Shown piece after piece: positions 21,359-38,426 of a DNA stretch of 64,000 nt (position 1 is its first letter; every line of letters begins with the position of its first letter). This stretch comes from an uncultured Bacillota bacterium. GTDB lineage: Bacteria > Bacillota_I > Bacilli_A > RFN20 > CAG-826. The notes below the pieces were generated by a model. That model worked only from the letters and a program-made list of their open reading frames with translations. It did not search any database and was not told where the DNA came from. The translations under genes and the position numbers were made by a program. The stretch covers positions 1,664-65,663 of the forward strand of contig CASFVT010000019.1 in assembly GCA_949298195.1 (NCBI GenBank), read 5' to 3'.

Positions 21359-21381
21359 GGAAGGCCGATGAAAGGCCTTCC
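21359..21381 (-). terminator. perfect 8-bp hairpin after the last gene of the nine-gene operon (no clear U-tract)
   Basis: GGAAGGCC-N7-GGCCTTCC begins 5 nt after the stop at 21386. On the minus strand it is followed by CCTACCTATAATTAGGAAG, a possible -10 and RBS for the PFK-like gene. Confidence 0.4.
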
Positions 21382-21385
21382 CGCC

Positions 21386-22495
21386 TCAAAGGGCCTCGTA
21401 ATGGGCGTAGAGATCGAGATCGCGGTTGACCGGGGTCGTGTCGACGAAATGGCCGGCGTTGGGGTCTTCTATGTCGGACGGGGCCGTCCACCAACCGGTG
21501 AAACGGTGCCCGTCGAGACTCGCGCCCGGGAGTTCGATCGTCTCCGCGGAGGGGACGCTCAGGTAGTAGGTACCCTCCTCCCCGACGATGAGCCCGGGAA
21601 GGAGCTCGATTTCGCCGCCCTCGGGATGGAAGGTCACCGTGAAATTGACCTCCGATCCAAAGGCATGGAACAAAACCCAACTCGTCGAGTTCTTGTAGTA
21701 GATGATCCTGTTCATCGTGTCGATGTAGAAGGAGCCTTCCGCGTAGTCCGCGTAGGAGGGGTTCCCGACCGGGGAACCGGCATCCTGATACCAATGGGCC
21801 CCGTTCTTGGAGGCCCCGACGTCCTCGAGGACGGCATCGGAGCCGTCGGTATAGACGATCGTCACCGTGTAACCACCGGAAACGGGGTTGAACTCGAAGG
21901 AAATGTCTTCGATCCCCCGACCGGGATCGCCCTTTTCGCCCTTCTCGATCGTCTCGACATAAGTCGAGCCGTCGTCGAGGGTGACGGTCATCGTCTTCGC
22001 GCCGGTCACGGCATCGGGTTCCGAGAACTCGATCGAGGCAATCCCGTTCCCGGTCGGGAGGATGATGCTGTCGGACAAGGAGCCGTCCGTGTAAACGAAG
22101 TAGAAACTGGTCGTCGCCCCGGCCTGATTCCGCTCATAGACGATCGAATCGATGCCGACGCCGGTCACGACCGGATAGGTAAGGAGTTCCTCTTCCCGTC
22201 CGTCGCTATATTCGACCCGGACGGTGACTTCCTCTTCGACGGGGTCATAGGTGGCTTCAAGCCCCTCGATCGAGACGCCGCTTTGCCCTTTCGGGATCGT
22301 GAAGACGGTATCCGCGATCCGGGAGTCGGTGTAGGAAATCCGGACCACCGTGTCCCCGACGTCGTTGACGGTGCTGGTCACTTCCTTGATCGAATAATTC
22401 CCGCTGCCGTTGAAGAAACCGCAGGAACTGAGCCCGAAGACGGCCGCCCCGAGCAAGGGCAGCAATAGTCCTTTCGCTTTCTTTTCCATTCTCAT
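21386..22495 (-). CDS. lipoprotein with C-terminal Listeria-Bacteroides (Flg_new) repeat
   Basis: Signal LLPLLGAAVFGLSSC. C-terminal VTFHPEGGE...GHRFTGWWTAP...DLDLYAHY matches the Flg_new/TIGR02543 repeat pattern. 4-nt overlap with the upstream gene. Confidence 0.7.
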   Translation of the reverse strand: MRMEKKAKGLLLPLLGAAVFGLSSCGFFNGSGNYSIKEVTSTVNDVGDTVVRISYTDSRIADTVFTIPKGQSGVSIEGLEATYDPVEEEVTVRVEYSDGREEELLTYPVVTGVGIDSIVYERNQAGATTSFYFVYTDGSLSDSIILPTGNGIASIEFSEPDAVTGAKTMTVTLDDGSTYVETIEKGEKGDPGRGIEDISFEFNPVSGGYTVTIVYTDGSDAVLEDVGASKNGAHWYQDAGSPVGNPSYADYAEGSFYIDTMNRIIYYKNSTSWVLFHAFGSEVNFTVTFHPEGGEIELLPGLIVGEEGTYYLSVPSAETIELPGASLDGHRFTGWWTAPSDIEDPNAGHFVDTTPVNRDLDLYAHYEAL

Positions 22496-24870
22496 TTGCC
22501 TCCTCTTTCCTTAAGGTCGTTCAGATTGACGGTCTCGCCGAATAGATATGGCGTTTCCCCTCCCCGACCGTCGATGCCGAGGTAGAAACGGAAGGGATTG
22601 CTCCCGGCCGCGAGGGGAACGCAACGGGCGAGGTAGGCGGAGTACTGGTTTCCCCCGCTTAGTCCCTCCCCGGTAAGACACGCCCGGGCGTAATCGATGC
22701 TCACTTCCTCCCCGAAGGGATTGACCATGAGTCCCGAGACATCGAGGGTCGAGGTGTTGTGCCCACCGCCATAGAAGGCGATGGCCCCTAGGACTTCCGC
22801 TTCGTCCCCGTCATTATAGACATATCCCTTCCGGGCGGCTTCTTCGCTCAGGAGGGCCTTGATCGGGAAGTAGGAGTCGATCGGGAAGTCAAGCCCTTCC
22901 GTCCCGAGGGAAGCGAGGACGGAGGAGATCTGCTCGTAGATGAGACACGAGGCGTCAATCGAGGCAATCGACTTGTAATCGTAGAAGCGGGTATCCCCGC
23001 TCAACTTGAGATGGACCGGCGAGGAGACCCCGCCGATCTGATGGGGGGAGACCGAGGTGAGTTGGAGGGCTCCCATCACCACGTCGAGGAGTTCCTGGAC
23101 GAAGGAGGGAACCCCACTATAGAGGTAGGCCCCGTTGAAGAGGCTCTCGAAGGCGATGGCGAAGAGTCCCGATCGCTCGAAGAAGCTGTCGCGGACTTCC
23201 ACCCCGTAGCCTTCGCGCAATTCGACGTCGTCGAGTCCGGACTGGATGGAGGCCATGGCCTTCATCGCCTCGTCGGGACTCACGATCGAACGGACGATCG
23301 AATCAAGGATCCGGTCGGCCGCCTTCCCGGGGGCGAGGAGCTCGTCGAGGGTACCGCTTCCGATGATGCCGTTGTAATCAAGGCCGATCCGGGTGAACTC
23401 GTCGGGCCGGCTCACTTCGTTGTTACCGAGCTTGAGGAGGAATTCCCGGGCATTGTTGAGATAACAATTGTCGAGGAGGAAATCCGGGGAGGAATAGACC
23501 CTGAGGGTCACCCGGCCGTTCCGGAGGTAGGTGTCCCTCACCTCGACATTCGAGCCGAGGACGTCCATCGTCGTGCCGACGTATTCGAGGAGGTTGAGGT
23601 CACCGACGTTGTCGACGCTCAGGAGCTTGAGGTCAGACACGGTGATGTCGTCCCCTTCCACGTACATCGTCGAGTTGTCCTGCCCGTAGGCGGTGATGAC
23701 CTGTAGCGAGTAAGGCCCGAGGAAAACATATGGGAGGGGGCCTTCGAAGTTGTCTTTCTCCCCGTCCATCGAGGGGGCCCAGCGGCCGTTGGGCTGATAG
23801 CCGCCATGGTAGGTGTAGGCCAGTTCCTGGGAGGATATCGTGAAGCCGTTTCCGATGAAGTCCTTCTGGACGTGGATGCCGGTCTTCACGAGGGAATGCT
23901 CCGCGGCGGTGCCCTCACTCGGGTTGAGGGCGAAATACTGCTTCAGGAAGTCGTGGGGATAGGTCGTCTCGAACTGATAGAGGTCGAAGGAAGAGGTTTG
24001 GGAGGGGAAGTCGAAGTAACCGAAGAGGCGGGTGTTCTGATTCAATAGCTCATCGACGAAATTCCCGTCGCCGTCCTGGACGTAGGTCGATTTGAGGGAG
24101 AGGAGGTTGCGCTGGAGGCAGATCTTCTCCCCTTCTTCCGAGAGGTTGGTCGCGGCCATGAGGTCACCGTAGTCCTTGACGTTGACCGCTTCTTCCTCGA
24201 CGTAGAAGGAATAGGTCGAGAGGACCGAAGGGGTCTTCTCGAGGCCGAAGCTCACATAGCTCTCCCCCGGGGCATTGATGGTGATGACCCCGTTGGAATA
24301 GGAAAGGTTGTTCGAATGGGCCCGCAAAACGGCCTTGTCGTCATCGTAATCGCTGTAGATGCCGAACTTCAGGTCGACGGTCGCCCGCTTCTTGGAATAT
24401 CGACCGTCGGTCGAGTAGTCGTATTCCCCGTAAGTCCTCTTCTTTTCGAAAGAATCCCCGGAAGCCGGCGTCGAAGCGTCGACGATGGTGATTGCCCCGT
24501 CTTCGTAGACGGTCGCGAGGAAGCTCCGGCTGACGCTCCCCTTCTGGTTGGAGCAGGTCAAGCGGGTCGTCCCTTCCTTCTGGGGATTGAGATAAGTTTC
24601 CTCCCCGCGGACGGTAATCGAGGCAATGTCCGGATCCGCACTCGACCAAACGAGGTCGTTGCCCGGGGCCAGGGCGAAGTTATCGTCGTAGATCGGCTCG
24701 GCGACGAGCTCGCTCTCCACGTCGACCTTGAACCCCTCGGAATCGAGGTAGTCCCATTTGATCCCGGAGATGTCGACCTCGATGAGATTCTTGATCGGGG
24801 TAATCGAAATGTAGGTGAGGATGCTCACCGCGAAGGGGATGAGGAGCAAAAGGGGGAGGGTCTTCTTCAT
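22492..24870 (-). CDS. 792-aa exported or anchored protein: Big_2-like Ig domain plus beta-helix-like region
   Basis: Start at MKKTLPLLLLIPFAVSILTY (Met 344 of track ORF 22492..25899), forming an ATGA overlap with the upstream permease. VWSSADPDIASITVRGEETYLNPQKEGTTRLTC resembles Big_2. The later repetitive V/L/N/D-rich strands suggest a right-handed beta-helix. Confidence 0.7.
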   Translation of the reverse strand: MKKTLPLLLLIPFAVSILTYISITPIKNLIEVDISGIKWDYLDSEGFKVDVESELVAEPIYDDNFALAPGNDLVWSSADPDIASITVRGEETYLNPQKEGTTRLTCSNQKGSVSRSFLATVYEDGAITIVDASTPASGDSFEKKRTYGEYDYSTDGRYSKKRATVDLKFGIYSDYDDDKAVLRAHSNNLSYSNGVITINAPGESYVSFGLEKTPSVLSTYSFYVEEEAVNVKDYGDLMAATNLSEEGEKICLQRNLLSLKSTYVQDGDGNFVDELLNQNTRLFGYFDFPSQTSSFDLYQFETTYPHDFLKQYFALNPSEGTAAEHSLVKTGIHVQKDFIGNGFTISSQELAYTYHGGYQPNGRWAPSMDGEKDNFEGPLPYVFLGPYSLQVITAYGQDNSTMYVEGDDITVSDLKLLSVDNVGDLNLLEYVGTTMDVLGSNVEVRDTYLRNGRVTLRVYSSPDFLLDNCYLNNAREFLLKLGNNEVSRPDEFTRIGLDYNGIIGSGTLDELLAPGKAADRILDSIVRSIVSPDEAMKAMASIQSGLDDVELREGYGVEVRDSFFERSGLFAIAFESLFNGAYLYSGVPSFVQELLDVVMGALQLTSVSPHQIGGVSSPVHLKLSGDTRFYDYKSIASIDASCLIYEQISSVLASLGTEGLDFPIDSYFPIKALLSEEAARKGYVYNDGDEAEVLGAIAFYGGGHNTSTLDVSGLMVNPFGEEVSIDYARACLTGEGLSGGNQYSAYLARCVPLAAGSNPFRFYLGIDGRGGETPYLFGETVNLNDLKERGGK

Positions 24871-26477
24871 ACGGTTGCCCCCATCGATAGGTAAAGCCCC
24901 TTCAGGCGGAAGGGCAGATAGCATAGCGGCAACAAGAGAAGAAGGGCCAAACCGACTTCGGAGAGATAGACGGCATAAGAAGGCAGTTTGAGGAACATGA
25001 GGAGGAAGTGCAGTCCGGCGACGAAGAGGGGAAAGAGGATGGAAATTATGGTCGGGAAGAACTCGTAAACCCCCCGCTTCCCGGTCAATGAGTAGGAGGA
25101 AATGTCGGAAAGAAGACCGTATGAGGCCACCGAGACGATGAGGAGGGAACCAGTCACGAGGGAGACGAAGAAGAGGGGCCAGGCGATTTCGCCAAAAAAG
25201 AGGAGGACGATGTTGGTCACCAGGAAGGAGAAGACGGAGACACCGACCGGGATGAGGAGCTTGTAGAAAGTGGCCTTGAGAGGGGAGACGGGAGTCGTCT
25301 TGAGAAGGAGACGGCCCTTTCCCTCCCGGGTGATGCCATCGCTCGCGCCGGAAGTGAGGATCGAGGCGAACAGGAGCAGGACCAAGAGGGTGATTCCGTT
25401 CGGAAGCTCGGAAAAGTAATCGAGGAAGATGGCGAGGTTCCCATAGAGGAGGGATGAGAGGCTCGAGATGACGACATAGGCGAGGAAGGGCTGCATGAAC
25501 AAGAGGGAGGTGAAAGAGAATAGATACGAGCCGTTGCGGAAAAGGAGGATGAATTCCTTCTTGAGGAGGGCTTTGTCGAGGGAGAGGACCTTGTTTGCTC
25601 TTCCCCCGCTTTTCCTTTTCCCTTCTTTCCCGGGGAGGGCTTCCTTGTTCCGATTGTAGAGGAAGGAGAGGAGATAGAGGCCGAGGAAGGCCATCAGGAA
25701 GACGGAACCGAGGAGAAAGAAAAGGGAACTCACGAGGTTCCCCGTCCCCCGCATGAGGGAGAAGATGGAGCTGCAGGGGATGAGCCAAGCCGCGACCTCG
25801 TGGAGGCCGGTGAGGAAAGAGGCCGAGACGTATTGGTCGAGTCGGCTCCCCTGGACGACCGAGAGGAAGAGGGAAAGAACATACTGGTAGAGGAAGCAAA
25901 GGGCGATGGCGATCAAAGTCCCGAGGATCAACTGGAGGAGGTAACGCCCGCTTAAGAAGGAGTAGACCCTCTCATAGAGGGGGAGGAGGGCCATCGTAAG
26001 CCCGATCCCAACGAAGGAGACGATGAAGGGGTAGGCGGCCGAGAGGACGTAGAAGGACGGGTCGAGGGAACGGCTGCTCCCGTAGGCGACGAGGATCGGG
26101 GTGGCCAGCAAGAGGCTCGACAAGGCGAGGCGGAGATATAGGTAAAGCCCCTTTCCGAGGATGACGTCGTCGGGAGGAATCGGGAGTGGCGAAAGGATCT
26201 TCTCGTCGATGTCCCGGTAGAGGCTCCGGTGGGCGCTCGGGAGGGTGGCCAGGGACGACAAAAGGAAATATAGGAAGAGGAACAGAACGAGGAAATCGTC
26301 GCTTCCGTAGGAGGAGAACTCCTGAAACTGGGCATCGAGGGCCAGGAAAAGATACACCTCGAGGGCGACGAAGAGGCCGGCCCCGAGGAGGAGGAAGAGG
26401 GATTTGAGGATCCGTTCGGTCAAGTTCCCCCGCGGCAGGGCTCCCTTGAACTCGTTGACGAAGATGTTGAGGATCAT
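24867..26477 (-). CDS. polytopic membrane protein, putative permease partner of the adjacent ABC ATPase
   Basis: 536 aa with 12 or more hydrophobic helices. ATGA overlaps on both sides. Size and position fit the putative-ABC-exporter type of Firmicutes. Confidence 0.65.
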   Translation of the reverse strand: MILNIFVNEFKGALPRGNLTERILKSLFLLLGAGLFVALEVYLFLALDAQFQEFSSYGSDDFLVLFLFLYFLLSSLATLPSAHRSLYRDIDEKILSPLPIPPDDVILGKGLYLYLRLALSSLLLATPILVAYGSSRSLDPSFYVLSAAYPFIVSFVGIGLTMALLPLYERVYSFLSGRYLLQLILGTLIAIALCFLYQYVLSLFLSVVQGSRLDQYVSASFLTGLHEVAAWLIPCSSIFSLMRGTGNLVSSLFFLLGSVFLMAFLGLYLLSFLYNRNKEALPGKEGKRKSGGRANKVLSLDKALLKKEFILLFRNGSYLFSFTSLLFMQPFLAYVVISSLSSLLYGNLAIFLDYFSELPNGITLLVLLLFASILTSGASDGITREGKGRLLLKTTPVSPLKATFYKLLIPVGVSVFSFLVTNIVLLFFGEIAWPLFFVSLVTGSLLIVSVASYGLLSDISSYSLTGKRGVYEFFPTIISILFPLFVAGLHFLLMFLKLPSYAVYLSEVGLALLLLLPLCYLPFRLKGLYLSMGATV

Positions 26478-27268
26478 CGGGGGTGTTCCCCGTAAACGCG
26501 GAAGAAGATGAGTTTGAGGTCCTTCCGCTTGAGGGGCTCCTTGTGGAAATCGATGAGGGTGGCGACCTTCCCTTCGTCGATGATGGCCACCCGGTCGCAG
26601 ACATCGGCGATGAGGTCGATGTTATGGGAGGTAAGGAGGATGGTGTTCCCGTTCTCCCCATAGGCCTTCATCATCGAGAGGAGGGTCTCGTAGGCCATCA
26701 CGTCGAGCCCGACCGTCGGTTCGTCGAGGATCCAGAGTTTGGGATTGTGGATGAGGGAGGCGATGAGCCCCTCTTTTTGCTTCATGCCGTGGGAATAGCC
26801 GTCGATTCGGCGGCTGAGGGCCTCTTCCCCGAGTTCGAACTTCCCGTCGAGGAAGGCGAGGTTCTTATCGAAGCTCTCCTGGCTGATCCCGTAGGCCGAG
26901 GCGACGAATTGGAGGTACTCGTAGCCGCTCATCTGCTCGTAAAGAAGGGGCTCGGAAGGCACATAGCCGTATAGCGACTTCACCTCGAGGGGATATTCGT
27001 CGACCGGGAGGCCGAAGACCTCAATCGAGCCGCTCTCGTAGCCCTTGGCCCCGATGATGGAGTCGATGGTCGTCGATTTGCCAACCCCGTTTTTGCCGAG
27101 CAGCCCGAAGATTTCCCCGCGATGGACCGTGAAATCGAGTCCCTTGAGGACTTCGTGGGAGCCGTATGATTTGTGGACGTCATGGACGGCCACCGCCTCG
27201 ACGGAGAGGTCATCGGCCAGGCGGTCGATGTCGACGATGGTCGATTTCTTGATCTTGGCCATCATCAT
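26474..27268 (-). CDS. ABC transporter ATP-binding protein
   Basis: Walker A GKNGVGKST, degenerate signature YSHGMKQK, Walker B LWILDEPTVGLD, H-loop LTSHN. Confidence 0.9.
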   Translation of the reverse strand: MMMAKIKKSTIVDIDRLADDLSVEAVAVHDVHKSYGSHEVLKGLDFTVHRGEIFGLLGKNGVGKSTTIDSIIGAKGYESGSIEVFGLPVDEYPLEVKSLYGYVPSEPLLYEQMSGYEYLQFVASAYGISQESFDKNLAFLDGKFELGEEALSRRIDGYSHGMKQKEGLIASLIHNPKLWILDEPTVGLDVMAYETLLSMMKAYGENGNTILLTSHNIDLIADVCDRVAIIDEGKVATLIDFHKEPLKRKDLKLIFFRVYGEHPR

Positions 27269-28578
27269 CTCCCCCTGATCCCCTTGATCCAGATGGCTGG
27301 ATCGACGTTCCCCCCGAGGAGGGAAACCTGGCTATGGCAATCGAGGCAAGTCAAGTCCTTTTTGCCGGTTTTGAGGAGACGTGGGGCCCCGCAGACGGGG
27401 CAGAAGAGGAGCTTCCTCCCATCGAGGGGGAGGACCAGCGAGAGGGTCTTGAATAGCCGCGGGAAAATGGATTCCGTAATCTCCGGATTGACCTCGAGGA
27501 TGCCCTCGTAAACCCCGGAGGCGTTCTTGAGGGCGATGACGTAGGAATCGCGGAGAAGGGCCAGGTTCTCGCTCTTCTTCTTGAACTCGCCATAAAGCCT
27601 GATTTCCCGCCTTGAGATTGCCCCGCGGTAGAGAATCTCGACCCTTAGGGTCTTCTCCTCGACCTTGCAGTGGTAAAGGAACCCGTCTTTGTTGAAGGCG
27701 AAGGCGGATATGACGATCTTCCCGTCCTTCCACTTGAAAGTCGGCTCCTGGGCCAGGCGGTAACCGTCCGCGAGGAGTTCCTTGAGTAGACGATAGGCGA
27801 AATAGGCGTACGGCGGTTCGTCGACTTCCTTCCCGAAGTCGCTCAGATGGGAGAGGTAATACCGGTAGAGGCGGTTGTAACGGGGATCGTGGATGAGGAT
27901 GTTGGTCGCTAGAAAGGGGGTGCTCACCTTCTTCCCCTTCCTCTCGAGGAAGCGGACGAAGGAAGATAGCGAAAGGCGCCTGGCCTTCGAAACGGCCTTC
28001 GAGAGAAGGGAAGCATTCCCCTCCTCACTCAAAGAGGAAAGGTAGGAAGCGGCCGCCTCCTCGCTGTTTTCAAGCTGGCTGATCGGGCCCGCCTCCGGGA
28101 AGATGGCCAATGGGGACTGGTAAAGGCGTTCGAGGGAACGCCCTTCCTTGATCGTCCCGCTTTCCTCGATTGAGGAAAGGCGGTCCTTGAGGCCGTCGAA
28201 GATGGCGAGGGCCACTTCGTTTTCGTAGGTGAGGAGGGAGTCCCCGTATTCCTCCCCATAGACGTATTCCGGGGCAAAGTCCCCATCCCCTTTCTTCCGC
28301 CAGAAAGAGGGCTCGAGGCTGGTCTTGTGGAACTGCTCGGGGGTAAGGGAGGCGGAGAGTTCGCTCCGAAGGACGATTTCCTCCGGTTCGCTTTTCCGGT
28401 GGGGGTTCATGGCAATGTCCATGAAGGTGTCGAGAAGGGAGGATATTTCGTTTATTTCATCCGTGCTTTGCTCGTGGTATTCGAATTCGAGCGGTTTTTC
28501 GCAGAAGGAAAGGAACCCCGCGCGTTTGACGACCAGCAGGGACAATGCCTCATTGAAACTGCTCGCAAACGAGGGCAT
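27265..28578 (-). CDS. McrC/DUF2357-like partner protein with C-terminal CxxC-N14-CxxC zinc ribbon
   Basis: 437 aa, 11 nt downstream of the McrB-like gene. LLTYENEVALAIFDGL resembles the (T)xENR motif of DUF2357/McrC by eye. A possible D-x8-EEK (KDGFLYHCKVEEK) follows. Ends with CPVCGAPRLLKTGKKDLTCLDC. Confidence 0.5.
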   Translation of the reverse strand: MPSFASSFNEALSLLVVKRAGFLSFCEKPLEFEYHEQSTDEINEISSLLDTFMDIAMNPHRKSEPEEIVLRSELSASLTPEQFHKTSLEPSFWRKKGDGDFAPEYVYGEEYGDSLLTYENEVALAIFDGLKDRLSSIEESGTIKEGRSLERLYQSPLAIFPEAGPISQLENSEEAAASYLSSLSEEGNASLLSKAVSKARRLSLSSFVRFLERKGKKVSTPFLATNILIHDPRYNRLYRYYLSHLSDFGKEVDEPPYAYFAYRLLKELLADGYRLAQEPTFKWKDGKIVISAFAFNKDGFLYHCKVEEKTLRVEILYRGAISRREIRLYGEFKKKSENLALLRDSYVIALKNASGVYEGILEVNPEITESIFPRLFKTLSLVLPLDGRKLLFCPVCGAPRLLKTGKKDLTCLDCHSQVSLLGGNVDPAIWIKGIRGR

Positions 28579-28589
28579 CTCGTCTTTCC

Positions 28590-30386
28590 TCAGCTAAAGC
28601 GCCGGAGATAGTGCGCAAGACGCTCGTGGGTGAGGGGGAAGGCGTTCTTCCCATACGTCCGGTCGATTTCGTCGCGGAGGGCGATGAGGGCGTCCTTGAC
28701 GAATTCCTCGTATCGACCCTCGAGCTTACTCGCGATCTTCTCCGCGAACATGAAGTCGAGGGCTTCTTCCTTGCTTCCCCCGCAGGCGACGAAGACCGGG
28801 ACGAAGAGCTCGATCTGGTGGTAGACGCGGTTGCCGAAGGTGATTTCGAAATCCTCATAGGTCTTGTTGAGGATGGAGCGGAACTTCGACCAGTCGGCCT
28901 TGCTGAGGCGCTTTTCCTCATCCTTCTGGGCTTCCGCGAAGAGGCCCATGAGGTGCGAATAGGAAATGGAAATCGGTTCCGGGATTTTCTTGACCGAGAA
29001 TGGCTCGTTCCGGTCGTTGAAGGAAATGACGATGGCCCGGTCGTAGACCTTGTCGGTGATCGTGTAGGTCGAATCGTCCCGGTTGGCCGTTCCGATGAAC
29101 CAGGTGGTCTCGGGGATTTTCAGGTTGCCGTCCTGGAGATGCTCCGGCGGGGTGAAGTCATAAGGGAGGTTCATGATCTTGAGAACCCGTTCGTCGAGGG
29201 GGTATTCCATGATGGATAGGAAGTCGGCGAAGTAGTACTCGATCCGGGCGATGTTCATCTCGTCGAGGACCATGACGTTGATGTCCTGGCTCTCGTAGGT
29301 GGCTTGGTAGAGGCGCTTGAGGAACTCAGTTTCGTTATAGGTCTTCGAGAAATCGTTCCAGTAGCCGAGGATGGATGTCCGGTCCCTCCAGGTGGCCTGG
29401 ACGAGGACGAAGAAGCTCTTCTCCGAGATGAAGTTGGAGAAATAACGGGCAATGGAACTCTTGCCGGTGCCCGAAAGGCCTTGGAGGATGATGAGCCGGG
29501 AGGCCGATAAGCCTGCCACGAAGGCCCGAACTGCCGTCTTCTCGTAATAGAGGCCCTCTTCCCCGGCAAGGTAATCGCGGAAGGAATCGGCGATGGTTCT
29601 CAAATCGAGTCCATCGTCGTCGAACTTCTTGACATCGACCATCTCGGCCCGGGAATCGATGAGGGAGAGGCCAGGGAAGACCCGGTTCCGGTCGAGGCCA
29701 TAGAAATCGTCGTTTGGGAGGGGGCCGCTGGCCGTCCCGACCGCGGTTGCCCGCTCACGGGTGGCGAAGGCGGAGGAAACGTCCTCCACGTCCATGACCT
29801 CGTCGACCTTGGCTTCAAGTTCCTCGAGCTTCTCGGCTTCCTCGCTTTTCGGGCTGCTCTCCTCGAGGGGCTTCCGCCGGTAAACGAGGGAATAGACGAG
29901 GAGGACAAGGAAGAAGAGGCTGAGGTAGAGGACGAGGGCCACCACGAGGGCAACGAGGAAGGATTCGCCGGTGAAGGCGAGGGATTGCCCGAGAAGGTCC
30001 ATCCCGTTCTCAAAGGCGAGGTGGGAGGCCGAGCCGATCCCGATTCCCAGCCCGAAGAGGACGATGAAGCTCGCCGCGTAGATGGAAATCCATTTGGCCG
30101 AATAGGGCTTTTCGTCGTAGTAACCGGCAAGCCTCACCTCGATGACGACCGCGAGGGCAAAGAGGAAGGCGTAGACGGCCATTAGGACGAGCATGATGTA
30201 GCTCTGCATCCCGACCGATTCGACGGTCACGAAGCCGAAGGCCGTGGCCAAGGAAGCAATCGGGTTGCCGTTCATCACCACCGTCGAGTTCGGGTCGAGG
30301 CAGATGCCGCTAAAGACGACGATCAGGAGATAGAAGAAGACAAGCGAGAGGGCAATCCCATCGATCCTTTTGAAGAGAGTTCTCAT
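28590..30386 (-). CDS. membrane-anchored McrB-like AAA+ (AAA_5) NTPase
   Basis: 598 aa. Residues 1 to about 170 form 4-5 hydrophobic helices, followed by an acidic linker. Walker A LQGLSGTGKSS, Walker B with McrB-like extension VMVLDEMNIARIEYYFADFLSIME, and McrB signature-like FIGTANRDDSTYTITDKVYDRA (compare GTMNTADRS). Confidence 0.75.
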   Translation of the reverse strand: MRTLFKRIDGIALSLVFFYLLIVVFSGICLDPNSTVVMNGNPIASLATAFGFVTVESVGMQSYIMLVLMAVYAFLFALAVVIEVRLAGYYDEKPYSAKWISIYAASFIVLFGLGIGIGSASHLAFENGMDLLGQSLAFTGESFLVALVVALVLYLSLFFLVLLVYSLVYRRKPLEESSPKSEEAEKLEELEAKVDEVMDVEDVSSAFATRERATAVGTASGPLPNDDFYGLDRNRVFPGLSLIDSRAEMVDVKKFDDDGLDLRTIADSFRDYLAGEEGLYYEKTAVRAFVAGLSASRLIILQGLSGTGKSSIARYFSNFISEKSFFVLVQATWRDRTSILGYWNDFSKTYNETEFLKRLYQATYESQDINVMVLDEMNIARIEYYFADFLSIMEYPLDERVLKIMNLPYDFTPPEHLQDGNLKIPETTWFIGTANRDDSTYTITDKVYDRAIVISFNDRNEPFSVKKIPEPISISYSHLMGLFAEAQKDEEKRLSKADWSKFRSILNKTYEDFEITFGNRVYHQIELFVPVFVACGGSKEEALDFMFAEKIASKLEGRYEEFVKDALIALRDEIDRTYGKNAFPLTHERLAHYLRRFS

Positions 30387-31309
30387 TTTTCGACCTCCTG
30401 GTTGGTTTGTTCTTCTTGTTTGGGCAGTTCGCCATCGGGAAGAAGGTACTCTTTCCCATCATAGGTAAGTACTTCCTGGAAGGAAACGTCGGCTTCCCTA
30501 TCGGGAGCGAAGGGAAGCAGGGAGAGGAGCCCCTCGGTCCTCTTCTCGATTGAGCGATCCATCTTCCTCCGGTAGTACTCGAAGATGAGGAAGCAATAGA
30601 CAATCGAGACGATGCAGATGACCCCGGCCCCGCTTTGGAGGAAGAGGACGAAGGCCCCGGCCGCCGGGATGCGGAAGCCATCGTAATGGCCGACCACCTG
30701 TTGGAACGGGAGGTAGTCGCCGTAGAAGACGTTCTGGTCGGTCTTGTCGTTCGCGTCGCCTTGGGTGATGAACATCTTCCCGTCGCTGGTGTCGACGATG
30801 TCGACTACCCGGTGGACGACGATCGAGCCGTCACTGCCTTGGTAGGCCAAGACATCGTAGAGTTCCACCTCGTCGACCTCCCGGTACGGGGTGACGACGA
30901 TGATGTCGTAGGTATTGAACTGGTCGTCCAGTCCATTCGCGAAGAGGTAGGGGTTCGAGGGGTGCTTCTCCGACATCGAGCCCGAGACGATGACGAGGGG
31001 GATATTCCCCCCGAAGTTCATTGCCGTGCCCATGAAGCGGGAGGCGAGACTATAGGCGAAGACCCCGACCAAGACGAGGAGAAGGAGGTAGGATAGTCCT
31101 TTCCCGGTGTAATGGAGGATCTTCCGCGGGAGGGATTTTTCTTTCCGGCGGTTGCTTTCCTCGATGAGGAGTTCGACATCCTCTTCCCCGCTGTCGACCG
31201 CCTCGATGATGCCCCGGAAGTAGTTCCGGAAGAGGAAGGTGAAGACGAAGGAGAGGCTAACAAGGGCGACGATGGTCACGATGAGGGAGAGGATTTCAAT
31301 GCTGCTCAT
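30383..31309 (-). CDS. sipW: SipW-type (ER/archaeal-type) signal peptidase I with N- and C-terminal extensions
   Basis: Catalytic Ser box VVSGSMSEKHP, His box VVHRVVDI and ITQGDANDKTDQ (compare TKGDNN). N-terminal helix plus charged segment, and a C-terminal helix plus tail. The stop overlaps the AAA+ gene start (ATGA). Confidence 0.8.
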   Translation of the reverse strand: MSSIEILSLIVTIVALVSLSFVFTFLFRNYFRGIIEAVDSGEEDVELLIEESNRRKEKSLPRKILHYTGKGLSYLLLLVLVGVFAYSLASRFMGTAMNFGGNIPLVIVSGSMSEKHPSNPYLFANGLDDQFNTYDIIVVTPYREVDEVELYDVLAYQGSDGSIVVHRVVDIVDTSDGKMFITQGDANDKTDQNVFYGDYLPFQQVVGHYDGFRIPAAGAFVLFLQSGAGVICIVSIVYCFLIFEYYRRKMDRSIEKRTEGLLSLLPFAPDREADVSFQEVLTYDGKEYLLPDGELPKQEEQTNQEVEK

Positions 31310-31384
31310 CTAAGTCGACCCCCTCATAAAGACACGGCCTAGCCAACGAACACGCCGGCTAGGCCATAGATGGAGAAATGGCAA

Positions 31385-32170
31385 TCAATAGCCTGCCGCC
31401 AAGTAAGGCGTGACGGTGATGGTGAACTTGGCGTTGCTGGCCTTTTCAAGGAGCGAGAGGGCCGACATGGCGACCGAGGCCGACTCCGAATTGCCATCGT
31501 AATCGCCGGGATTGCCGTATCCGAAGAAGGACCCCCACCCAAAGGAGAGCGTCAGGTTCACGTCGAGGGTAGAACCGTCGGCATTCGCGGCCACATACCC
31601 GGTGACCCCACCGTCATGGTCGGTTACAGCTTTCTTATTGAAAGTACTCGAAGAGGTTCCGGCAGCGTTCAAAGGGGTGTCCGCCTTGGCGAATTCGGTA
31701 GGAGAATCCGTGGAATTCGACACCGGGAGGACAAGATAGCTACTTGAGATGGCATCGTTGAGGTAAGAGCCGGTGGTCGTATCTTCCCCATCGGTCTTGA
31801 CGGTCATCGAGAGCTTGAAACCGCCGTAATGATCGGCGAAGGCAGCGTTCTTCACCGCATTGGTGATCTGGAAGGAGAGGCCGAAGCTCAGCTGCTCGCC
31901 ACCGCCATCCTCGGATCCGTATTGGATGAGGCCACTGGTGTCGCTCGTCGCGGCATCGAAGCGGAGGGGCGGCTCGTTGTCGACGTCCACCGCGTCGATC
32001 TTCATACTGTAATCCTTGACCTCGCCGGTGACGACGGTAATCGGACTCGTGGTATCCGGTTCTTGCTGGCTCAGGATCCAGGCGCCGAAGGCCGTGCCGG
32101 CCAAGGCGATGGTCCCGGCTCCGACCAAGACGTAGGCAATCGATTTGTTGCCCTTCAATTTGCTAGCCAT
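31385..32170 (-). CDS. secreted protein with SipW-cognate-type signal peptide (TasA/camelysin-style leader), paralog 2
   Basis: N-terminus KGNKSIAYVLVGAGTIALAGTAFGAWILS resembles the TIGR04088-type leader. Shares LSFGWGSFFGYG and a C-terminal ...FTITVTPY block with the upstream paralog. Confidence 0.6.
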   Translation of the reverse strand: MASKLKGNKSIAYVLVGAGTIALAGTAFGAWILSQQEPDTTSPITVVTGEVKDYSMKIDAVDVDNEPPLRFDAATSDTSGLIQYGSEDGGGEQLSFGLSFQITNAVKNAAFADHYGGFKLSMTVKTDGEDTTTGSYLNDAISSSYLVLPVSNSTDSPTEFAKADTPLNAAGTSSSTFNKKAVTDHDGGVTGYVAANADGSTLDVNLTLSFGWGSFFGYGNPGDYDGNSESASVAMSALSLLEKASNAKFTITVTPYLAAGY

Positions 32171-32193: not shown

Positions 32194-33009
32194 TCAGGCA
32201 CCGGCCCCGTACTTTTCGACCTTGACGGTCAAGACGAGGTCCTCGCCGTTGAGGGCCTTATACATCGCATCCATCTCGGCCGCGATGTTCTGGGCAGCCG
32301 TGACGGTCAGGGCCTCGCGGCTATCGGTAGCTTCCCCGTCAAGAGCCGAACCCGAGTCATCGGCCTTGTAATAAAGGTCATTGTAGAAAGTGGCCGGGCT
32401 ACTACCGCCGAAGAAAGTCCCCCACTTGAAGCTGACTTCCTGATTCTGGACAGTGACTGTATAGGTGCCGTTGGTGGCCGTGCCGGCTGGCGTAAGATCC
32501 TGCGTGGTGGTCGCGAGGTCAACGTAGGTCCATTTGCCGTCTTGGGTCGCTGTCTCCGAAGACCGTTTGCTCCCGAGTTTGTTGCCGTCGCTAGCCACGA
32601 GGTTGGCTGCATTGGCCCCATCGGCATACCCAAGTGAGAAAACGAGCCGCAGATCGTTCTCATCGTCGGTCAGGTAACCGGAACCGTAATTGATGGTGAG
32701 GGTCGGCAGGGTGATCTTGAGATTCCCGGTGTTCGTCCCGTCCCAGCCAACGGCATGGGTATCCTCGTCGATCGTTGCGCCCGTCTCGCTGAGGGTGATT
32801 GCCAGGCCAGTGCCACTGGCCATCGTGAGTTCGACGAAATCACCGCTCACGGTGTCGACGGTGACGCCAACATTCGGATTCTGCGTGGTGTTCGAAACCG
32901 AGATGATGTAGGTAGCGGTCGCCGTGGTCAACAAGGCGATGGCTCCGAGGCCCAAAACGGTTCCGAGAATCGTCTTGCGCCGCTTTTCTAGTTTGGTCTG
33001 TTTTCTCAT
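32194..33009 (-). CDS. secreted protein with SipW-cognate-type signal peptide, paralog 1 (first gene of the operon)
   Basis: N-terminus KRRKTILGTVLGLGAIALLTTATATYIIS. Shares VSFKWGTFFGGS and ...LVLTVKVEKY with paralog 2. The RBS GGGGGG lies 5 nt upstream of the ATG. Confidence 0.6.
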   Translation of the reverse strand: MRKQTKLEKRRKTILGTVLGLGAIALLTTATATYIISVSNTTQNPNVGVTVDTVSGDFVELTMASGTGLAITLSETGATIDEDTHAVGWDGTNTGNLKITLPTLTINYGSGYLTDDENDLRLVFSLGYADGANAANLVASDGNKLGSKRSSETATQDGKWTYVDLATTTQDLTPAGTATNGTYTVTVQNQEVSFKWGTFFGGSSPATFYNDLYYKADDSGSALDGEATDSREALTVTAAQNIAAEMDAMYKALNGEDLVLTVKVEKYGAGA

Positions 33010-33568: not shown

Positions 33569-34303
33569 ATGAGCGAAAACATCTACTTGTCCTCGAAGAA
33601 AAGAGTCGAGGACGTTCTCTCATCCACGGCCAAGATCAAAAAGGTCAACTCAATCAAAGACCTTTCGGAAGTCGATGGCTATCAAAACGGCATCAAGACT
33701 TGGATTGCCGCCCTCGCCATCGACATCCGCAACGCCGCTTCCCTCTTCTCGGAAGAGGACAACGCAGACGTCATCAGAATCACCAAGGCGTTCTTCGGGG
33801 AGGCCAACCGGATTGCTAGGTCCAATCCACGCTGCATCCAGACCGAAATCCAAGGTGACAAATTCTTTGCCTACTATGCCACCCCTGGGCAGAACGACTT
33901 GGTGCAACTCCTCGAGGACGCGGTATACCTCAACACTTTCCATGCGATGCTGATCAAGATCCTCGATCTCAAGAACATGCCGGTCTTCGACATCGGAATC
34001 GGCATTTCCAGCTCCGAGTGCATCATTGCGAGGTCAGGTGATGCCGGCTCACCATACATTTTCATCGGGGATGCCGTCTTCAATGCCACCCGTCTGGCAA
34101 GACAGGGCAATAAGGATGGCTTCGGGGAAATCATCGTCGACCGCCTCTTCTATGACAACGTCAAGAACTACGCGGCCAACGAGAAACAGGGCTACTGGGA
34201 GTTCTTCAAGAGGAAATTCTCAAAACTACTGAACATGTGGTGCTTCCACACCTCGGCAATCGACGCGGCTTACAGCGAGTGGATTGACCAGAAGGTCAAG
34301 TAA
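33569..34303 (+). CDS. stand-alone class III nucleotidyl cyclase domain protein
   Basis: 244 aa. ALAIDIRNAASLF (first metal Asp, compare FxDIxGFT), IQGDKFFAYY (second metal Asp, GDxxxA), GIGISSSECIIARSGD (compare GIHTGxVxxG) and IGDAVFNATRLARQG (compare GDxVNxAxRL with Asn/Arg). The RBS AGAGGAG lies upstream. Confidence 0.7.
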   Translation: MSENIYLSSKKRVEDVLSSTAKIKKVNSIKDLSEVDGYQNGIKTWIAALAIDIRNAASLFSEEDNADVIRITKAFFGEANRIARSNPRCIQTEIQGDKFFAYYATPGQNDLVQLLEDAVYLNTFHAMLIKILDLKNMPVFDIGIGISSSECIIARSGDAGSPYIFIGDAVFNATRLARQGNKDGFGEIIVDRLFYDNVKNYAANEKQGYWEFFKRKFSKLLNMWCFHTSAIDAAYSEWIDQKVK

Positions 34304-34321
34304 GCGATAAGTGTTAAAAAT

Positions 34322-34349
34322 GCCGGTGTCCGTAAGGGCATCGGCTTTT
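34322..34349. terminator. bidirectional intrinsic terminator
   Basis: AAAAAT-GCCGGTG-N10-CATCGGC-TTTT. Serves the cyclase gene on the plus strand, and potentially the convergent GT4 gene on the minus strand (ATTTTT follows). Confidence 0.55.
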
Positions 34350-34533
34350 CCGGTTCTACTGGCTTTGGCGTGGTGACGTTGAGAGAAATTTCAAACTAAG
34401 ACTTTCGCTTCTTACTAATGCAACGACACGCCAATAAGAACCGTTTTCAATTTGCCGTCCAAAACCACCAGCCAAGAGATCCACGTGTGCTGACAAGTGA
34501 CGGAAATCGTGTCAAAGCCGGTGCAGCTCTTAT

Positions 34534-35628
34534 TCAATGCGAGGAGCCCGCAGACGGTAGAAGGCTTACAAAGAGGTCGGCGTATTCGTTTGCCATTGTC
34601 GTGTCGGAGTGCTTTTTGGATTCCGCCAAAGCACCTTGTGAAAGCCGTTGTAGTTGCTTCGAATCTCGTAATACATTCGCTATTGTCTTGGCTGCCCCTT
34701 GGATATCACCGACTTCGAACGTATATCCGTTTTCTCCATCGTGAACCATATCGGGAACGCCCCCTACTGAGGTTGCGATTACTGGGATGCCAAATGCATT
34801 TGCCTCCAATATTACGATCGGCGACCCTTCTCTTTCGGAGGTCAAGACAAACAATTTGCTCCTTTCATATAGTTCATCTGTTTTTTGCCCCTTCCCAAAA
34901 AAATCCACATACTGGCGAATGCCAATGGCATCAGCCTCCCGTTCCAACTCCGCCTGAAGCGCTCCATATCCGGCAATCGCTCCTCTAACCTGAATCCCAA
35001 TATCGTGTAACGATTTAATGATCTTTAGGAAGTCTGATTGCCTTTTGACGGCATCCATACGCCCGACAGTCAAAAGATCATAAGTCTTGGCAGTGTGGTT
35101 GTCATTCGAAGGAAGATGGATGCCGTTGTCAATCGCTCGCACAGATGAACGATAGATCGACTCGGCTTCCCCCATCAGTCTATGGTGACATGCCACGATG
35201 ATTATGTTCCTTTTTTTGACGTTGCCACTTATTGATGCACGATAAATTGCTGGGAGATCGTTTTTGGGCTTGGCATGGATGGTATGAACGATTTTGCATC
35301 TCTTGTAATCGACGATCAGATTGAGATAAAAGACGCACGTAAGGTGAGAACTAATAATATCCGGGTCGATATGCGCAACCGTCCGTCTGAGTTCAAACAT
35401 AAAGGGGATGTCAATCGTGCATTTTTTGTGGAGGATATAGACCCGAACGGATGGGTCACGGAGGAGCGATGAATACCTACCGTCTATGCGATCGAAGAAA
35501 ACTATCAGGCTGATTTCAAACCTCGAATCGCCCTTCAAGCGATTAACCAAATCGTAAACGACTTGCGATGAGCCACCCACATCCAACGACTGGATGGCAA
35601 AGCAAAGCTTGATTCTTTTTTCTTTCAT
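34534..35628 (-). CDS. GT4-family glycosyltransferase
   Basis: Start at MKEKRIKLCFAIQSLDVGG (Met 23 of ORF 34534..35694). C-terminal EREGSPIVILEANAFGIPVIATSVGGVPDMV is the GT4 E-x7-E region. Confidence 0.85.
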   Translation of the reverse strand: MKEKRIKLCFAIQSLDVGGSSQVVYDLVNRLKGDSRFEISLIVFFDRIDGRYSSLLRDPSVRVYILHKKCTIDIPFMFELRRTVAHIDPDIISSHLTCVFYLNLIVDYKRCKIVHTIHAKPKNDLPAIYRASISGNVKKRNIIIVACHHRLMGEAESIYRSSVRAIDNGIHLPSNDNHTAKTYDLLTVGRMDAVKRQSDFLKIIKSLHDIGIQVRGAIAGYGALQAELEREADAIGIRQYVDFFGKGQKTDELYERSKLFVLTSEREGSPIVILEANAFGIPVIATSVGGVPDMVHDGENGYTFEVGDIQGAAKTIANVLRDSKQLQRLSQGALAESKKHSDTTMANEYADLFVSLLPSAGSSH

Positions 35629-35805
35629 CAACCAAAGGATACAAGAAGCGTATTCTAATGGCGAGACGCCTGCCAAGCATCCAACACGCAGCAAGGATTA
35701 TCCAGCAATCGGAGTGATAGTCGCTTTCTTTGAAATAACAGCCGCTTTTCACATTGGTCACTGTGCGAAACAATCAGTGCCCCACCAGCTAAAAACCACT
35801 AAACT

Positions 35806-37164: not shown

Positions 37165-38386
37165 CCGCTCCACATCAGCATATAAATCGGAATTCGAGAC
37201 GGTTAGGGAAGCCGTGAAGAATAAGGATTGGCCATTCCTTCTTGCATCGATCCTCTTCTTTGCCTACATCCTCTTGTTTCTTTGCTTCGCCCGTCCCCCG
37301 TTCAATAGTCTTTATAACCCGATATTCATCGTTTTGTCTTTGGCGGTCATCTTCTTTTGCGTTTGGCGCACCGGACTGAAATTTAATATCGGCGTTTTCG
37401 GTGTCTTATGCTACCTCATCATCGTTTTTGCCATAAACGCTGCGAAAGGCATCTATTCGCTAAGTCCTTTAATTCCCCCAATTGCCATCTTAGTCACATA
37501 CGAATTTGCCTCTTCTTGTCGAAAAAGGGAAAATGAACTTCTTCTCCGTTTGGTTTACATCGCCCTCATCATTCTTCTCGTCTGGTCATACATCCGTTAT
37601 ATGCCTGATTGGATTGAGACAAGAGATGTGTCGATTTTCCTGGATGGTTTCTTTGAGAATTTGGATGGCCTCACCGATTATTTTGCAATCCTTTTTGCCA
37701 TCTCGCTCCACTATGTGGGGAAAAAACAATGGGAATCAATCATGGTAAGCCTCGCTTCTCTCTTCTTCATAATCGCAAGCGAAAGAAGAACGGGATTGCT
37801 GCTATGTCTTGGGGCCATTGTCCTTTTCGCATATTTCAAATTCGGACACAAGAATCCACCGGCCTTTGCCATTGGCTTGGCGATGTCTTTGGTTGTGGCT
37901 CTCCTGATTCTCATCCTCGTTCCCCAATTCCAGAGTCTGGGAGATCGAATACTGGCTGCCGTTCAATCAATCCTTACCTACGAGGGGCAATTCGCCGGGG
38001 AACCGAGGTTGGCTCTGGTAATTCGGGGACTCGTATACGGCTTCTCGAATTTCTTCGGGGCAATGGGTTATGATAGCATCGCCAACCTCTTGAATAGCAC
38101 CCCTGCGCACGATTTGATTGGTGATCTCTCACAGAATTACGGCGGTTTGGTTGGAATTACCACCGTCGTGTTCTTCTCGATAATCGCCTTCAAAATGCTA
38201 TTCAAATCCCGGGGTGATCGTTATCTCAATTCGTTTTACGGTCTTTTCTTCTTCCTTTTCATTTTTCTGGGAACGTTTTTGTACAATCGAGCTTTTTGTT
38301 TTTTTGGCGGCTTCTTTGCCGCTTTCTCGTTCAATAGTGTTGCGTCGCCCGCCTTCCCCAAAAAGAGGGCATTGGTAGTTTGCTAA
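37148..38386 (+). CDS. O-antigen polymerase/ligase (Wzy-like) family membrane protein
   Basis: 412 aa with 10 or more helices. The central segment ASERRTGLLLCLGAIVLF resembles the Wzy_C region. 17-nt overlap with the upstream gene. Confidence 0.6.
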   Translation: MKNLFSRSTSAYKSEFETVREAVKNKDWPFLLASILFFAYILLFLCFARPPFNSLYNPIFIVLSLAVIFFCVWRTGLKFNIGVFGVLCYLIIVFAINAAKGIYSLSPLIPPIAILVTYEFASSCRKRENELLLRLVYIALIILLVWSYIRYMPDWIETRDVSIFLDGFFENLDGLTDYFAILFAISLHYVGKKQWESIMVSLASLFFIIASERRTGLLLCLGAIVLFAYFKFGHKNPPAFAIGLAMSLVVALLILILVPQFQSLGDRILAAVQSILTYEGQFAGEPRLALVIRGLVYGFSNFFGAMGYDSIANLLNSTPAHDLIGDLSQNYGGLVGITTVVFFSIIAFKMLFKSRGDRYLNSFYGLFFFLFIFLGTFLYNRAFCFFGGFFAAFSFNSVASPAFPKKRALVVC

Positions 38387-38426
38387 AACATGTAAGGCCG
38401 TATTGATTTGAATATCCCAATGGGAT

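Follow-up and report, generated by a model that had tools for sequence, protein, structure and literature searches.

What does a McrBC-like gene pair do when its McrB-like member carries a membrane domain and when the pair sits in an operon with a SipW-type signal peptidase and an ATP-binding cassette (ABC) exporter? The question is raised by a 64,000-nucleotide stretch of contig CASFVT010000019.1 from an uncultured Bacillota bacterium (the window), in which all of the genes under study lie on the minus strand. The pair consists of two open reading frames (ORFs): a 598-amino-acid (aa) ATPase with transmembrane (TM) helices, here called TM-McrB (28590 to 30386), and a 437-aa partner (27265 to 28578) whose start lies 11 nucleotides (nt) beyond the TM-McrB stop. 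The homology of the pair to McrBC is solid, and the pair probably helps to build a cell-surface structure rather than to fight phages. More specifically, we give about an even chance to the reading that it is a McrBC-derived, nuclease-dead, membrane-anchored nucleoside triphosphatase (NTPase) of the NxD branch (defined below) that was exapted into a SipW-dependent machine for the assembly of surface fibers or of the envelope.

The ATPase and its partner

The AAA+ domain of TM-McrB (aa 233 to 598; 28590 to 29690) was delimited by Pfam, PDB, hhalign, and PADLOC matches and by its motifs. Walker A (GLSGTGKSS) lies at residues 303 to 311 and Walker B (VLDE) at residues 373 to 376 (D375-E376); VLDEMNIARIEYYFADFLSIME and FIGTANRDDSTYTITDKVYDRA are also present. 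The signature, N435-R-D437-D438, is an NxD variant, that is, a shortened N-x-D-[D/E]. Among 55 homologs sharing 47 to 77% identity, Walker A, Walker B, the signature, and about 110 further positions are invariant; the family consensus for the loop is T433-A434-N435-[K/R]-D437-[D/E]-S439-T440, with D437 invariant, N435 conserved in at least 90%, and either D or E at position 438. Bell et al. (2024, PMC11090510) defined a major branch of McrB proteins by a loop in which NxxD is reduced to NxD, "usually followed by E or a second D," and because the consensus loop matches that definition we place TM-McrB in the NxD branch.

Sequence searches grouped the ATPase with McrB. Pfam AAA_5 matched at E 1.5e-5 (25.5 bits versus a cutoff of 22). 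When TM-McrB was compared to the PDB with phmmer, the sole matches at E <0.1 were three E. coli McrB entries (E 5.5e-5, residues 278 to 451), and no MoxR or RavA chain was found at E ≤1. The top NCBIfam model was the McrB equivalog, with a score far below its cutoff, and hhalign of a profile of the 55 sequences against E. coli McrB gave a probability of 87.7%. A narrow profile of the ATPase family lost the McrB match when searched against the PDB and found only TM-plus-helix proteins; such matches of the family profile A1 to ATP synthase subunit b were weak (E 0.03 to 0.7). As far as sequence goes, the assignment of the ATPase to McrB, and not to MoxR or CbbQ, is solid.

The N-terminal 168 residues of TM-McrB (29883 to 30386) form a membrane domain with four TM helices, as judged by hydropathy, charge, and an AlphaFold2 (AF2) model. 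A Kyte-Doolittle scan found four hydrophobic stretches at the N terminus, and the model, which was built from an alignment of 55 homologs with a mean predicted local distance difference test (pLDDT) score of 80.4, agrees with this count and places the helices at residues 7 to 30, 60 to 89, 97 to 120, and 128 to 168 (pLDDT 70 to 94). The N-terminal tail, the loop at 85 to 100, and the segment after the last helix (YRRK) are rich in K and R, and the loops at 30 to 60 and 120 to 140 have neither. This positive-inside charge distribution predicts a topology with both termini inside and the AAA+ domain in the cytoplasm. In the external loop (aa 31 to 59), D31 and N41-P42 are each conserved in at least 90% of the 55 homologs; E83-x-R85 marks the cytoplasmic end of TM2. 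Conservation of the membrane domain is 0.53 to 0.63, and because of the conserved D31 and N41-P42 the domain looks like more than a passive anchor; it may contact an extracytoplasmic partner.

An acidic linker (aa 169 to 232; 29691 to 29882), recognized by composition and AF2 pLDDT, joins the two domains. In the model, an acidic helix at 182 to 208 (EEAEKLEELEAKVDEVMDVED...) follows TM4 and is itself followed by a disordered stretch, with the AAA+ fold beginning at about residue 233; pLDDT falls below 50 at 171 to 184 and 201 to 228. There are 23 D/E versus 13 K/R between residues 168 and 260, and the linker is the least conserved segment of the protein (0.46). Pfam and NCBIfam matched no DNA-binding domain in TM-McrB. 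The combination of four TM helices with an AAA+ domain was seen in thousands of metagenomic proteins, and its recurrence there and in at least 582 species-level genomes puts this architecture far beyond chance. An earlier note on this DNA, made from the sequence alone, had listed the AAA+ core motifs with their coordinates and gene order, hydrophobic N-terminal helices followed by an acidic linker, and a membrane domain standing in place of the McrB DNA reader; all of these held. It had also set an affiliation with McrB against one with MoxR- or CbbQ-like proteins, and the searches described above came down on the side of McrB.

The partner contains TYENE at residues 117 to 121, D299-x8-E308-E309-K310, and CPVC (393 to 396)-N14-CLDC (411 to 414), and hydropathy revealed no hydrophobic segment. 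To place the family we used 33 orthologs from syntenic loci, each scanned individually. DUF2357 (PF09823) matched 17 of the 33 (best E 3.1e-11), which assigns aa ~55 to 245 of the partner (27844 to 28416) to a DUF2357-like region corresponding to the N-terminal scaffold and finger of McrC. Three database homologs (P0126, P0131, and P0133) scored 26 to 27 bits against a gathering score of 23.3 at DUF2357 positions ~95 to 235. Because the window copy falls below detection, its DUF2357 homology is visible only through its orthologs. Invariant among the 33 are P103, Y118-E119-N120, T225-N226, Y234, and the four Cys. The AF2 model of the partner (13 sequences, pLDDT 74) has a β-rich N-terminal part, long helices at 118 to 153 and 173 to 214, and a ribbon at the C terminus.

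The McrC nuclease position is taken by a weakly conserved α/β domain (aa ~257 to 385; 27424 to 27810), delimited from the AF2 model and the alignment, in which a helix at 257 to 270 is followed by a five-stranded sheet at 274 to 332. Between positions 242 and 392, every alignment column falls short of 90% conservation among the 33 orthologs, and D299, E308, and K310 vary even among relatives at 57% identity. For these reasons a PD-(D/E)xK active site at D299-x8-ExK appears not to be maintained, and we rejected it as a candidate. The C-terminal C4 zinc ribbon (27319 to 27411) was identified from its invariant Cys and from profile matches to L37Ae, RpoM, and similar proteins (E ~0.01 to 0.05); Zn_Ribbon_TF matched 18 of the 33 orthologs. 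An HNH-like reading of the ribbon was also rejected, there being no conserved H or N between the Cys pairs.

To judge from its family, the partner is a McrC N-terminal-domain (DUF2357) protein without conserved nuclease residues. Here, too, the earlier note was borne out: the partner lies 11 nt downstream with its TYENE and CPVC-N14-CLDC motifs (of which TYEN, PTN, and the four Cys proved invariant), the relation to DUF2357/McrC that had been suggested is found at the level of the family, and the doubt expressed about the PD-(D/E)xK candidate was justified.

Conservation and content of the operon

The operon has nine genes, encoding two small secreted proteins, SipW, TM-McrB, the partner, an ABC ATPase, a permease, an exported protein, and a lipoprotein. 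The sipW stop and the TM-McrB start share 4 nt (ATGA), the start of the ABC ATPase gene overlaps the stop of the partner gene by 4 nt, and the permease gene overlaps the ABC ATPase gene. Further downstream, the start codon of the exported protein overlaps the stop codon of the permease (24870 to 24868 versus 24869 to 24867), and the lipoprotein gene overlaps the gene of the ~792-aa exported protein.

We examined gene order at 84 related loci, using as denominators the loci with enough flanking sequence. The sipW gene is directly upstream of TM-McrB at 73 of 78 loci, the partner is directly downstream at 81 of 82, where both ORFs are intact, and the ABC ATPase is adjacent at 76 of 79. The full gene set was detected at 41 of 54 loci, the misses being mostly the fast-evolving small proteins; the number of detectable small paralogs upstream of sipW ranges from zero to seven per locus, two being the commonest. 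Three contigs carrying homologs at 49 to 77% identity have the same gene order, flanked by differing housekeeping genes (PFK, LDH, Fe-ADH, and P-type ATPase). The similarity of each operon protein to its window copy tracks that of the AAA+ protein (Spearman 0.60 to 0.88), from which it appears that the block is inherited as a unit. In a scan of one genome per species, a relative was present in at least 582 species-level genomes. By their NCBI lineages, the carriers are labeled uncultured Bacilli, Mollicutes, Acholeplasmatales, Anaeroplasmataceae, "Ca. Onthovivens," and "Ca. Enteromonas," with a further set labeled Clostridia, Christensenellaceae, or "Ca. Scatosoma."

This conservation makes it hardly conceivable that the pair is a degenerate remnant, decayed and carried along in an otherwise functional sipW/ABC operon. 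A pair without its DNA reader and nuclease residues is what decay would leave, but the intact ORFs, the conserved residues of the TM domain and external loop, and above all the invariance of the Walker motifs, the signature, and some 110 other positions effectively refute it.

A few loci depart from the common order. One locus (L083) is rearranged. At another (L065, from Bacillales bacterium UBA4855), a second, paralogous pair lies directly upstream of the operon (106 to 2877 and 2877 to 4451); its ATPase is 923 aa long, with ~12 TM helices, an NxD AAA+ core, and a GTANRDE loop, and its 524-aa partner has an IYEN motif and two zinc ribbons. Because this second ATPase has ~12 TM helices, the membrane domain of the family appears to be modular. 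At two further loci, L079 (9956 to 13046) and L081 (9431 to 12486), the pair is present and no sipW, ABC, or permease gene occurs within 10 kb. The neighbors at L079 include two ORFs of ~535 aa, an ORF of 393 aa, and a gene resembling that of the CCA-adding enzyme.

Could the pair be a defense system? According to this alternative, a type IV restriction system would have given rise to a membrane-tethered anti-phage or anti-plasmid system whose task at the membrane would be to sense or block incoming nucleic acid; the zinc ribbon would be a nucleic acid binder, as zinc ribbons frequently are, another effector would do the damage, and sipW and the ABC genes would be unrelated neighbors or accessory effectors. 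The top curated PADLOC model for the AAA+ core is indeed a defense candidate, PDC-M26A (E 2.3e-36), and the NxD branch includes CoCoNuT, a group of predicted defense systems (PMC11090510). The loci L079 and L081, which carry the pair alone, indicate that it can exist apart from the operon, and a possibly acquired low-GC island adjoins the operon in the window. All of these observations favor defense, and the first and third also tell against a role in surface assembly.

However, the pair is not in a defense island. Gene order is near-invariant, with translational coupling to sipW and the ABC exporter, over the 84 loci; the flanks are housekeeping genes; and the operon proteins diverge together. 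The pair lacks a DNA-reading domain, conserved nuclease residues, and the conserved H or N between the Cys pairs that an HNH motif would require. None of the 33 partner orthologs matched a PADLOC model, and the effector that defense would call for is missing. We therefore consider defense quite improbable. The earlier note had left the choice between an atypical defense module and a repurposed NTPase acting at the membrane; near-invariant synteny, housekeeping flanks, and the lack of PADLOC matches among the partners favor the second and speak against the first.

The remaining genes of the operon bear on what such an NTPase might do. Directly upstream of TM-McrB is a 308-aa signal peptidase I of the SipW (archaeal/ER) type (30383 to 31309), identified by NCBIfam sigpep_I_arch at 54.4 bits versus a cutoff of 51.85 and by the SipW model at E 2.4e-19. 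It has kept the motifs with the catalytic Ser and His (SGSM109 and HRV166) as well as GDAN184 and has TM segments at 1 to 31, 67 to 94, and 214 to 247; an N-terminal TM helix with a charged segment and a cytoplasmic C-terminal tail of ~60 aa are extras.

Upstream of sipW are the genes for the two small secreted proteins. The first (271 aa; 32194 to 33009), known from its ORF and sequence, is a putative SipW substrate or fiber subunit; the second (261 aa; 31385 to 32170) is its paralog (E 1.3e-56 with the Small hidden Markov model [HMM]). Both have a basic N-terminal tail, a single hydrophobic helix whose last residues are T-x-A-x-[YW]-I, and then a β-like NVxVGTVxDxS; the signal regions end in TATATYIIS in the first and GTAFGAWILS in the second. 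The first has a C-terminal F-x-W-G-x-F-F-G motif, and in the family alignment (A6) W196, G197, and P205 are invariant, giving a W-G...P motif near the C terminus. We considered a TasA or camelysin identity for these proteins and rejected it at the sequence level. A terminator-like scan found a hairpin (31333 to 31368, minus strand) with a 16-bp stem that includes 9 G-C pairs; it sits in the 75-nt gap between the second small-protein gene and sipW. As a candidate attenuator it could reduce read-through and so yield subunits in excess of the machinery.

Downstream of the pair, the 264-aa ABC ATPase (26474 to 27268; ABC_tran E 5.8e-22) belongs to the ABC-2/DrrA-GldA-NodI group, with matches to the drrA subfamily (E 7e-48) and to GldA (E 2e-45) that are both below their cutoffs. 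The 536-aa polytopic permease (24867 to 26477) matched Pfam ABC_tran_2 (E 2.1e-7) and has at least 10 hydrophobic segments by hydropathy; its ortholog at locus L001 has a weak 12TM_1 match. The exported protein of ~792 aa (22492 to 24870), placed by a check of its start and by synteny, has an N-terminal signal or anchor. A right-handed Beta_helix domain was found in 3 of 25 orthologs (E 2.5e-5) and an Ig-like Big_2 domain in 1 of 25. A 1,135-aa form of this protein starting at TTG (22492 to 25899) is an artifact, the true start being the ATG at 24870. The last gene of the conserved block, as judged by synteny and sequence, encodes a 369-aa lipoprotein (21386 to 22495) with the lipobox ...LSSC and a Listeria-Bacteroides (Flg_new) repeat (E 2.5e-4).

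An ABC-2 exporter together with a β-helix/Ig-like exported protein would also fit an export or envelope function that involves no polymer. According to this explanation, the main rival to surface assembly, the ring and its partner would act as a MoxR-like chaperone or quality-control machine that remodels, inserts, or extracts a membrane or exported client. That client might be SipW or the permease, a precursor still held by its signal anchor, or a signal peptide after cleavage; the operon as a whole would serve envelope maintenance or export in a general way and would make no fiber. The AAA_5 fold is common to MoxR, NorQ, and CbbQ, and these lie near McrB in a fold search, in which MCM, dynein, MoxR (2r44), NorQ, McrB, RavA, and BrxL all matched at E 3e-4 to 1e-2; moreover, the small proteins are not demonstrably TasA-like. 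But sequence puts the ATPase with McrB, with no MoxR or RavA chain found in the PDB at E 1 by phmmer, and the partner is a DUF2357 protein, not the VWA protein typical of MoxR-class ATPases. The expansion of the small secreted proteins to between one and seven paralogs and the hairpin after their genes resemble what is seen with genes for structural subunits. On balance we think a chaperone role unlikely.

Several other observations concern the window as a whole. No second copy of the system was found in it. Between 19000 and 27000 there are many long antisense ORFs (for example, 21368 to 22468 and 23011 to 23706, both on the plus strand), which are high-GC artifacts. Divergent from the operon is a 244-aa ORF (33569 to 34303, plus strand) that weakly matches a nucleotide-cyclase domain (Guanylate_cyc E 0.0018, under the cutoff); as a component of the system it was rejected, being kept only in two close relatives (L001 and L005). 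Directly upstream of the operon is a low-GC block (~34000 to 47000; 43 to 47% GC versus 57 to 60% elsewhere). Its genes include those for a GT4 glycosyltransferase (34534 to 35694, minus strand) and a Wzy_C-like membrane protein (37148 to 38386, plus strand), and it is probably an acquired surface-polysaccharide island.

The wider NxD family and a proposed mechanism

Searched exhaustively with HMMER, the AAA+ domain alone gave 8,125 clusters at 50% identity, 699 of them at E <1e-30. The nearest 150 representatives show three architectures: (a) the four TM helices of the window protein; (b) 700 to 870 aa with no TM helix and a long N-terminal coiled coil, like CoCoNuT and PDC-M26A; and (c) 450 to 530 aa with hydrophobic helices at the N terminus, a single long TM helix, and a leucine-zipper-like coiled coil (for example, P0197 and P0198). 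The signature [GA]T[AMS]N-x-D-[DE] occurs in 119 of the 150, mostly as GTAN-x-D-[DE]. In a neighbor-joining tree of the nearest representatives, rooted on E. coli McrB, architecture (a) forms a nearly pure clade (46 of 47) and (c) a pure one (34 of 34), and (b) is paraphyletic. The three groups are at a mutual distance of ~0.65, and all are 0.89 from E. coli McrB.

A metagenome scan yielded 80 loci with architecture (c). There the ATPase is followed by a homolog of the window partner (A3 profile, E 1e-6 to 1e-24), and about half of the loci have sipW upstream, some of these with another sipW copy downstream; ABC, permease, large-protein, and lipoprotein genes were found at none of the 80. At one of these loci (L114, 4538 to 13958), two sipW copies flank the genes for a McrB-like protein and a DUF2357 partner (E 1.5e-10), and three secreted proteins have ATYAWFT/SLAWFT signal motifs, two of them with a C-terminal WLEGxDxxC; none of the three matched Pfam or NCBIfam. 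Comparison of the small proteins of the window family with neighbors of this clade, which has one or two TM helices and a coiled coil, gave only weak, nonsignificant HMM matches, which we did not use. Because they are found at both (a) and (c) loci, a SipW peptidase, a TM-anchored NxD McrB, a DUF2357 partner, and SipW-type secreted proteins constitute a core common to two clades. Bell et al. described, in two sentences, a CoCoPALM group in which a GTPase is fused to an FtsB-like TM helix and coiled coil, with an association with signal peptidase and a link to "pilus assembly" (PMC11090510). Architecture (c) fits that description.

Studies of McrBC complexes suggest how such a core might work. 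McrB is a hexamer, and the finger domain of McrC fills its pore and inserts one Arg or Lys beside the NxxD loop of a single site (PMC7680126). Hydrolysis steps around the ring, which led the authors to a comparison with F/V-ATPases (PMC7680126). If the window pair behaves likewise, six TM-McrB subunits would form a ring tethered by 24 TM helices via acidic linkers of ~65 residues, and the DUF2357 domain of the partner, seated in the pore, would switch on hydrolysis of NTP (probably GTP) at one site at a time. The zinc-ribbon partner would thus be the central activator or shaft of the ring. Genomic context suggests that the NTPase cycle would be coupled, through the TM domain and the external loop with D31 and N41-P42, to SipW, the secreted paralogs, and, in this clade, the ABC-2 exporter, and that it would serve to assemble a SipW-processed polymer or layer at the surface, to gate it, or to anchor it. 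The pair would not cut nucleic acid. The logic would be like that of the type IV pilus machine, which combines a peptidase with several pilin-like paralogs and with a hexameric NTPase seated on a polytopic platform.

A bolder generalization, which we put forward tentatively and at less than an even chance, is that McrBC, known only as a restriction motor, has been converted at least twice, in the four-TM clade and in the clade with one or two TM helices and a coiled coil, into the engine of unrecognized Gram-positive surface-fiber machines. In these, a stator-ring GTPase, a nuclease-less McrC-like shaft, SipW, and (here) an ABC exporter would assemble pilin-like paralogs on uncultured gut Bacilli and Clostridia.

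Besides the PDC-M26A match and the loci with the pair alone, a number of points weigh against the reading of the pair as an engine of surface assembly. The first concern the McrBC relationship itself. In the fold search McrB ranked 12th, with MCM, MoxR, and NorQ higher, so that by fold McrB is not separable. The window partner has no significant match in Pfam, NCBIfam, PADLOC, or PDB, and no signal came from hhalign when the partner profile was aligned with E. coli McrC; E. coli McrC may belong to a Pfam family other than DUF2357. When the partner model was searched with Foldseek, four of the seven top PDB chains were McrC-like, at nonsignificant E values of 0.011 to 0.3. They were 9a5m_A (B. 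subtilis YdjA, E 0.011), E. coli McrC (6hz4_M and 6ut6_G), and T. gammatolerans McrC (6ut7_G), the McrC chains proper giving E 0.08 to 0.3. YdjA is a member of the McrBC-type system BsuMI. The abstract of a preprint describes BsuMI as a noncanonical McrBC homolog.

The other points concern function. A profile of 34 small proteins found neither TasA, camelysin (Peptidase_M73), nor any other known relative in PDB and Pfam, and that these proteins are fiber subunits is guessed from how many there are, from their signal motif, and from where their genes lie. Donor-strand fibers such as those of TasA need no cytoplasmic energy source. Genomic context is the sole source of the role proposed here, and no protein of the NxD branch has been biochemically characterized, nucleotide use included (PMC11090510).

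If the pair does serve surface assembly, it would clearly exemplify the exaptation of a defense-type motor for the biogenesis of the cell envelope and would provide a new, NTP-driven route for the assembly of SipW-processed surface proteins. To our knowledge, little is known of the cell surfaces of the gut bacteria that carry it. The as yet untested NxD branch gains a tractable, nuclease-free model in which the mechanics of a McrB ring and McrC plug can be studied without DNA cutting, and the CoCoPALM idea, so far two sentences in the literature, gains concrete detail. The pair is also a warning to annotation pipelines such as PADLOC that an AAA+ match alone is insufficient for a defense call.

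Comparison with known systems

Canonical McrBC (E. coli and T. gammatolerans; 6UT6, 6HZ4, and 6UT7) and the window pair have in common the AAA+ core with its Walker A, Walker B, and consensus loop, the arrangement of two genes with the activator immediately downstream, and a partner that retains the McrC N-terminal domain, which fills the ring pore and stimulates hydrolysis. The window pair differs in having four TM helices in place of the N-terminal DNA-binding domain, NxD instead of NxxD, no PD-(D/E)xK catalytic residues, and an added zinc ribbon, and it is fixed in a surface-protein operon, not in restriction or defense loci. With CoCoNuT and PDC-M26 the pair shares the NxD AAA+ core, and its nearest relatives lacking a membrane domain are coiled-coil proteins of 700 to 870 aa. 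Those proteins, however, are soluble and paired with HEPN or other nucleases, whereas the window pair is membrane-anchored and has no nuclease, and its partner has no PADLOC match.

The tapA-sipW-tasA operon of B. subtilis and the sipW-bsaABC operon of C. perfringens resemble the window operon in having a dedicated SipW beside several secreted paralogs in which a motif with an aromatic residue closes the signal region. The small proteins of the window, in contrast, have no detectable homology to TasA or camelysin, and an AAA+ NTPase, a McrC-like protein, and an ABC exporter are all absent from those operons. A study of C. perfringens (PMC11580942) reports that BsaA fibers are SipW dependent and stay membrane anchored, that several type IV pilus mutants export less BsaA oligomer, evidence that its authors call inconclusive, and, more clearly, that secretion of the co-operonic BsaC requires the full set of type IV pilus genes. 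On this showing, an energy-dependent helper for such proteins would not be unprecedented.

The likeness to type IV pili and archaella is one of analogy and lies in the list of components: a dedicated leader peptidase, a cytoplasmic NTPase in hexameric form, a polytopic platform in the membrane, and one major with several minor subunit paralogs. There is no homology. The window NTPase is an AAA+ protein of the McrB type, not PilB or FlaI; the peptidase is of type I (SipW) and removes the hydrophobic helix instead of leaving it on the subunit; and in the window the platform is fused to the NTPase.

The closest counterpart is CoCoPALM. Our literature search found it described no further than in Bell et al. 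2024, and the supplementary files of the CoCoNuT paper hold no entries for CoCoPALM, FtsB, or signal peptidase. The window system has the NxD McrB-like NTPase with a membrane-spanning N-terminal fusion, the adjacent gene for a SipW-type signal peptidase, nearby secreted proteins with SipW-type signals, and, directly downstream, a DUF2357/McrC-like partner without an evident nuclease. It differs in having four TM helices and an acidic helix of ~27 residues, not an FtsB-like single TM helix and leucine zipper. Its partner is short (437 aa), ends in the zinc ribbon, and, judged from the AF2 helices, appears to have no long coiled coil like that of the L114 partner. Finally, its operon encodes three further components: the ABC-2 exporter, the exported protein of ~800 aa, and the lipoprotein. 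Compared with CoCoPALM by description only, the window system is thus a distinct, extended variant of a type of system that has a name but hardly a description.

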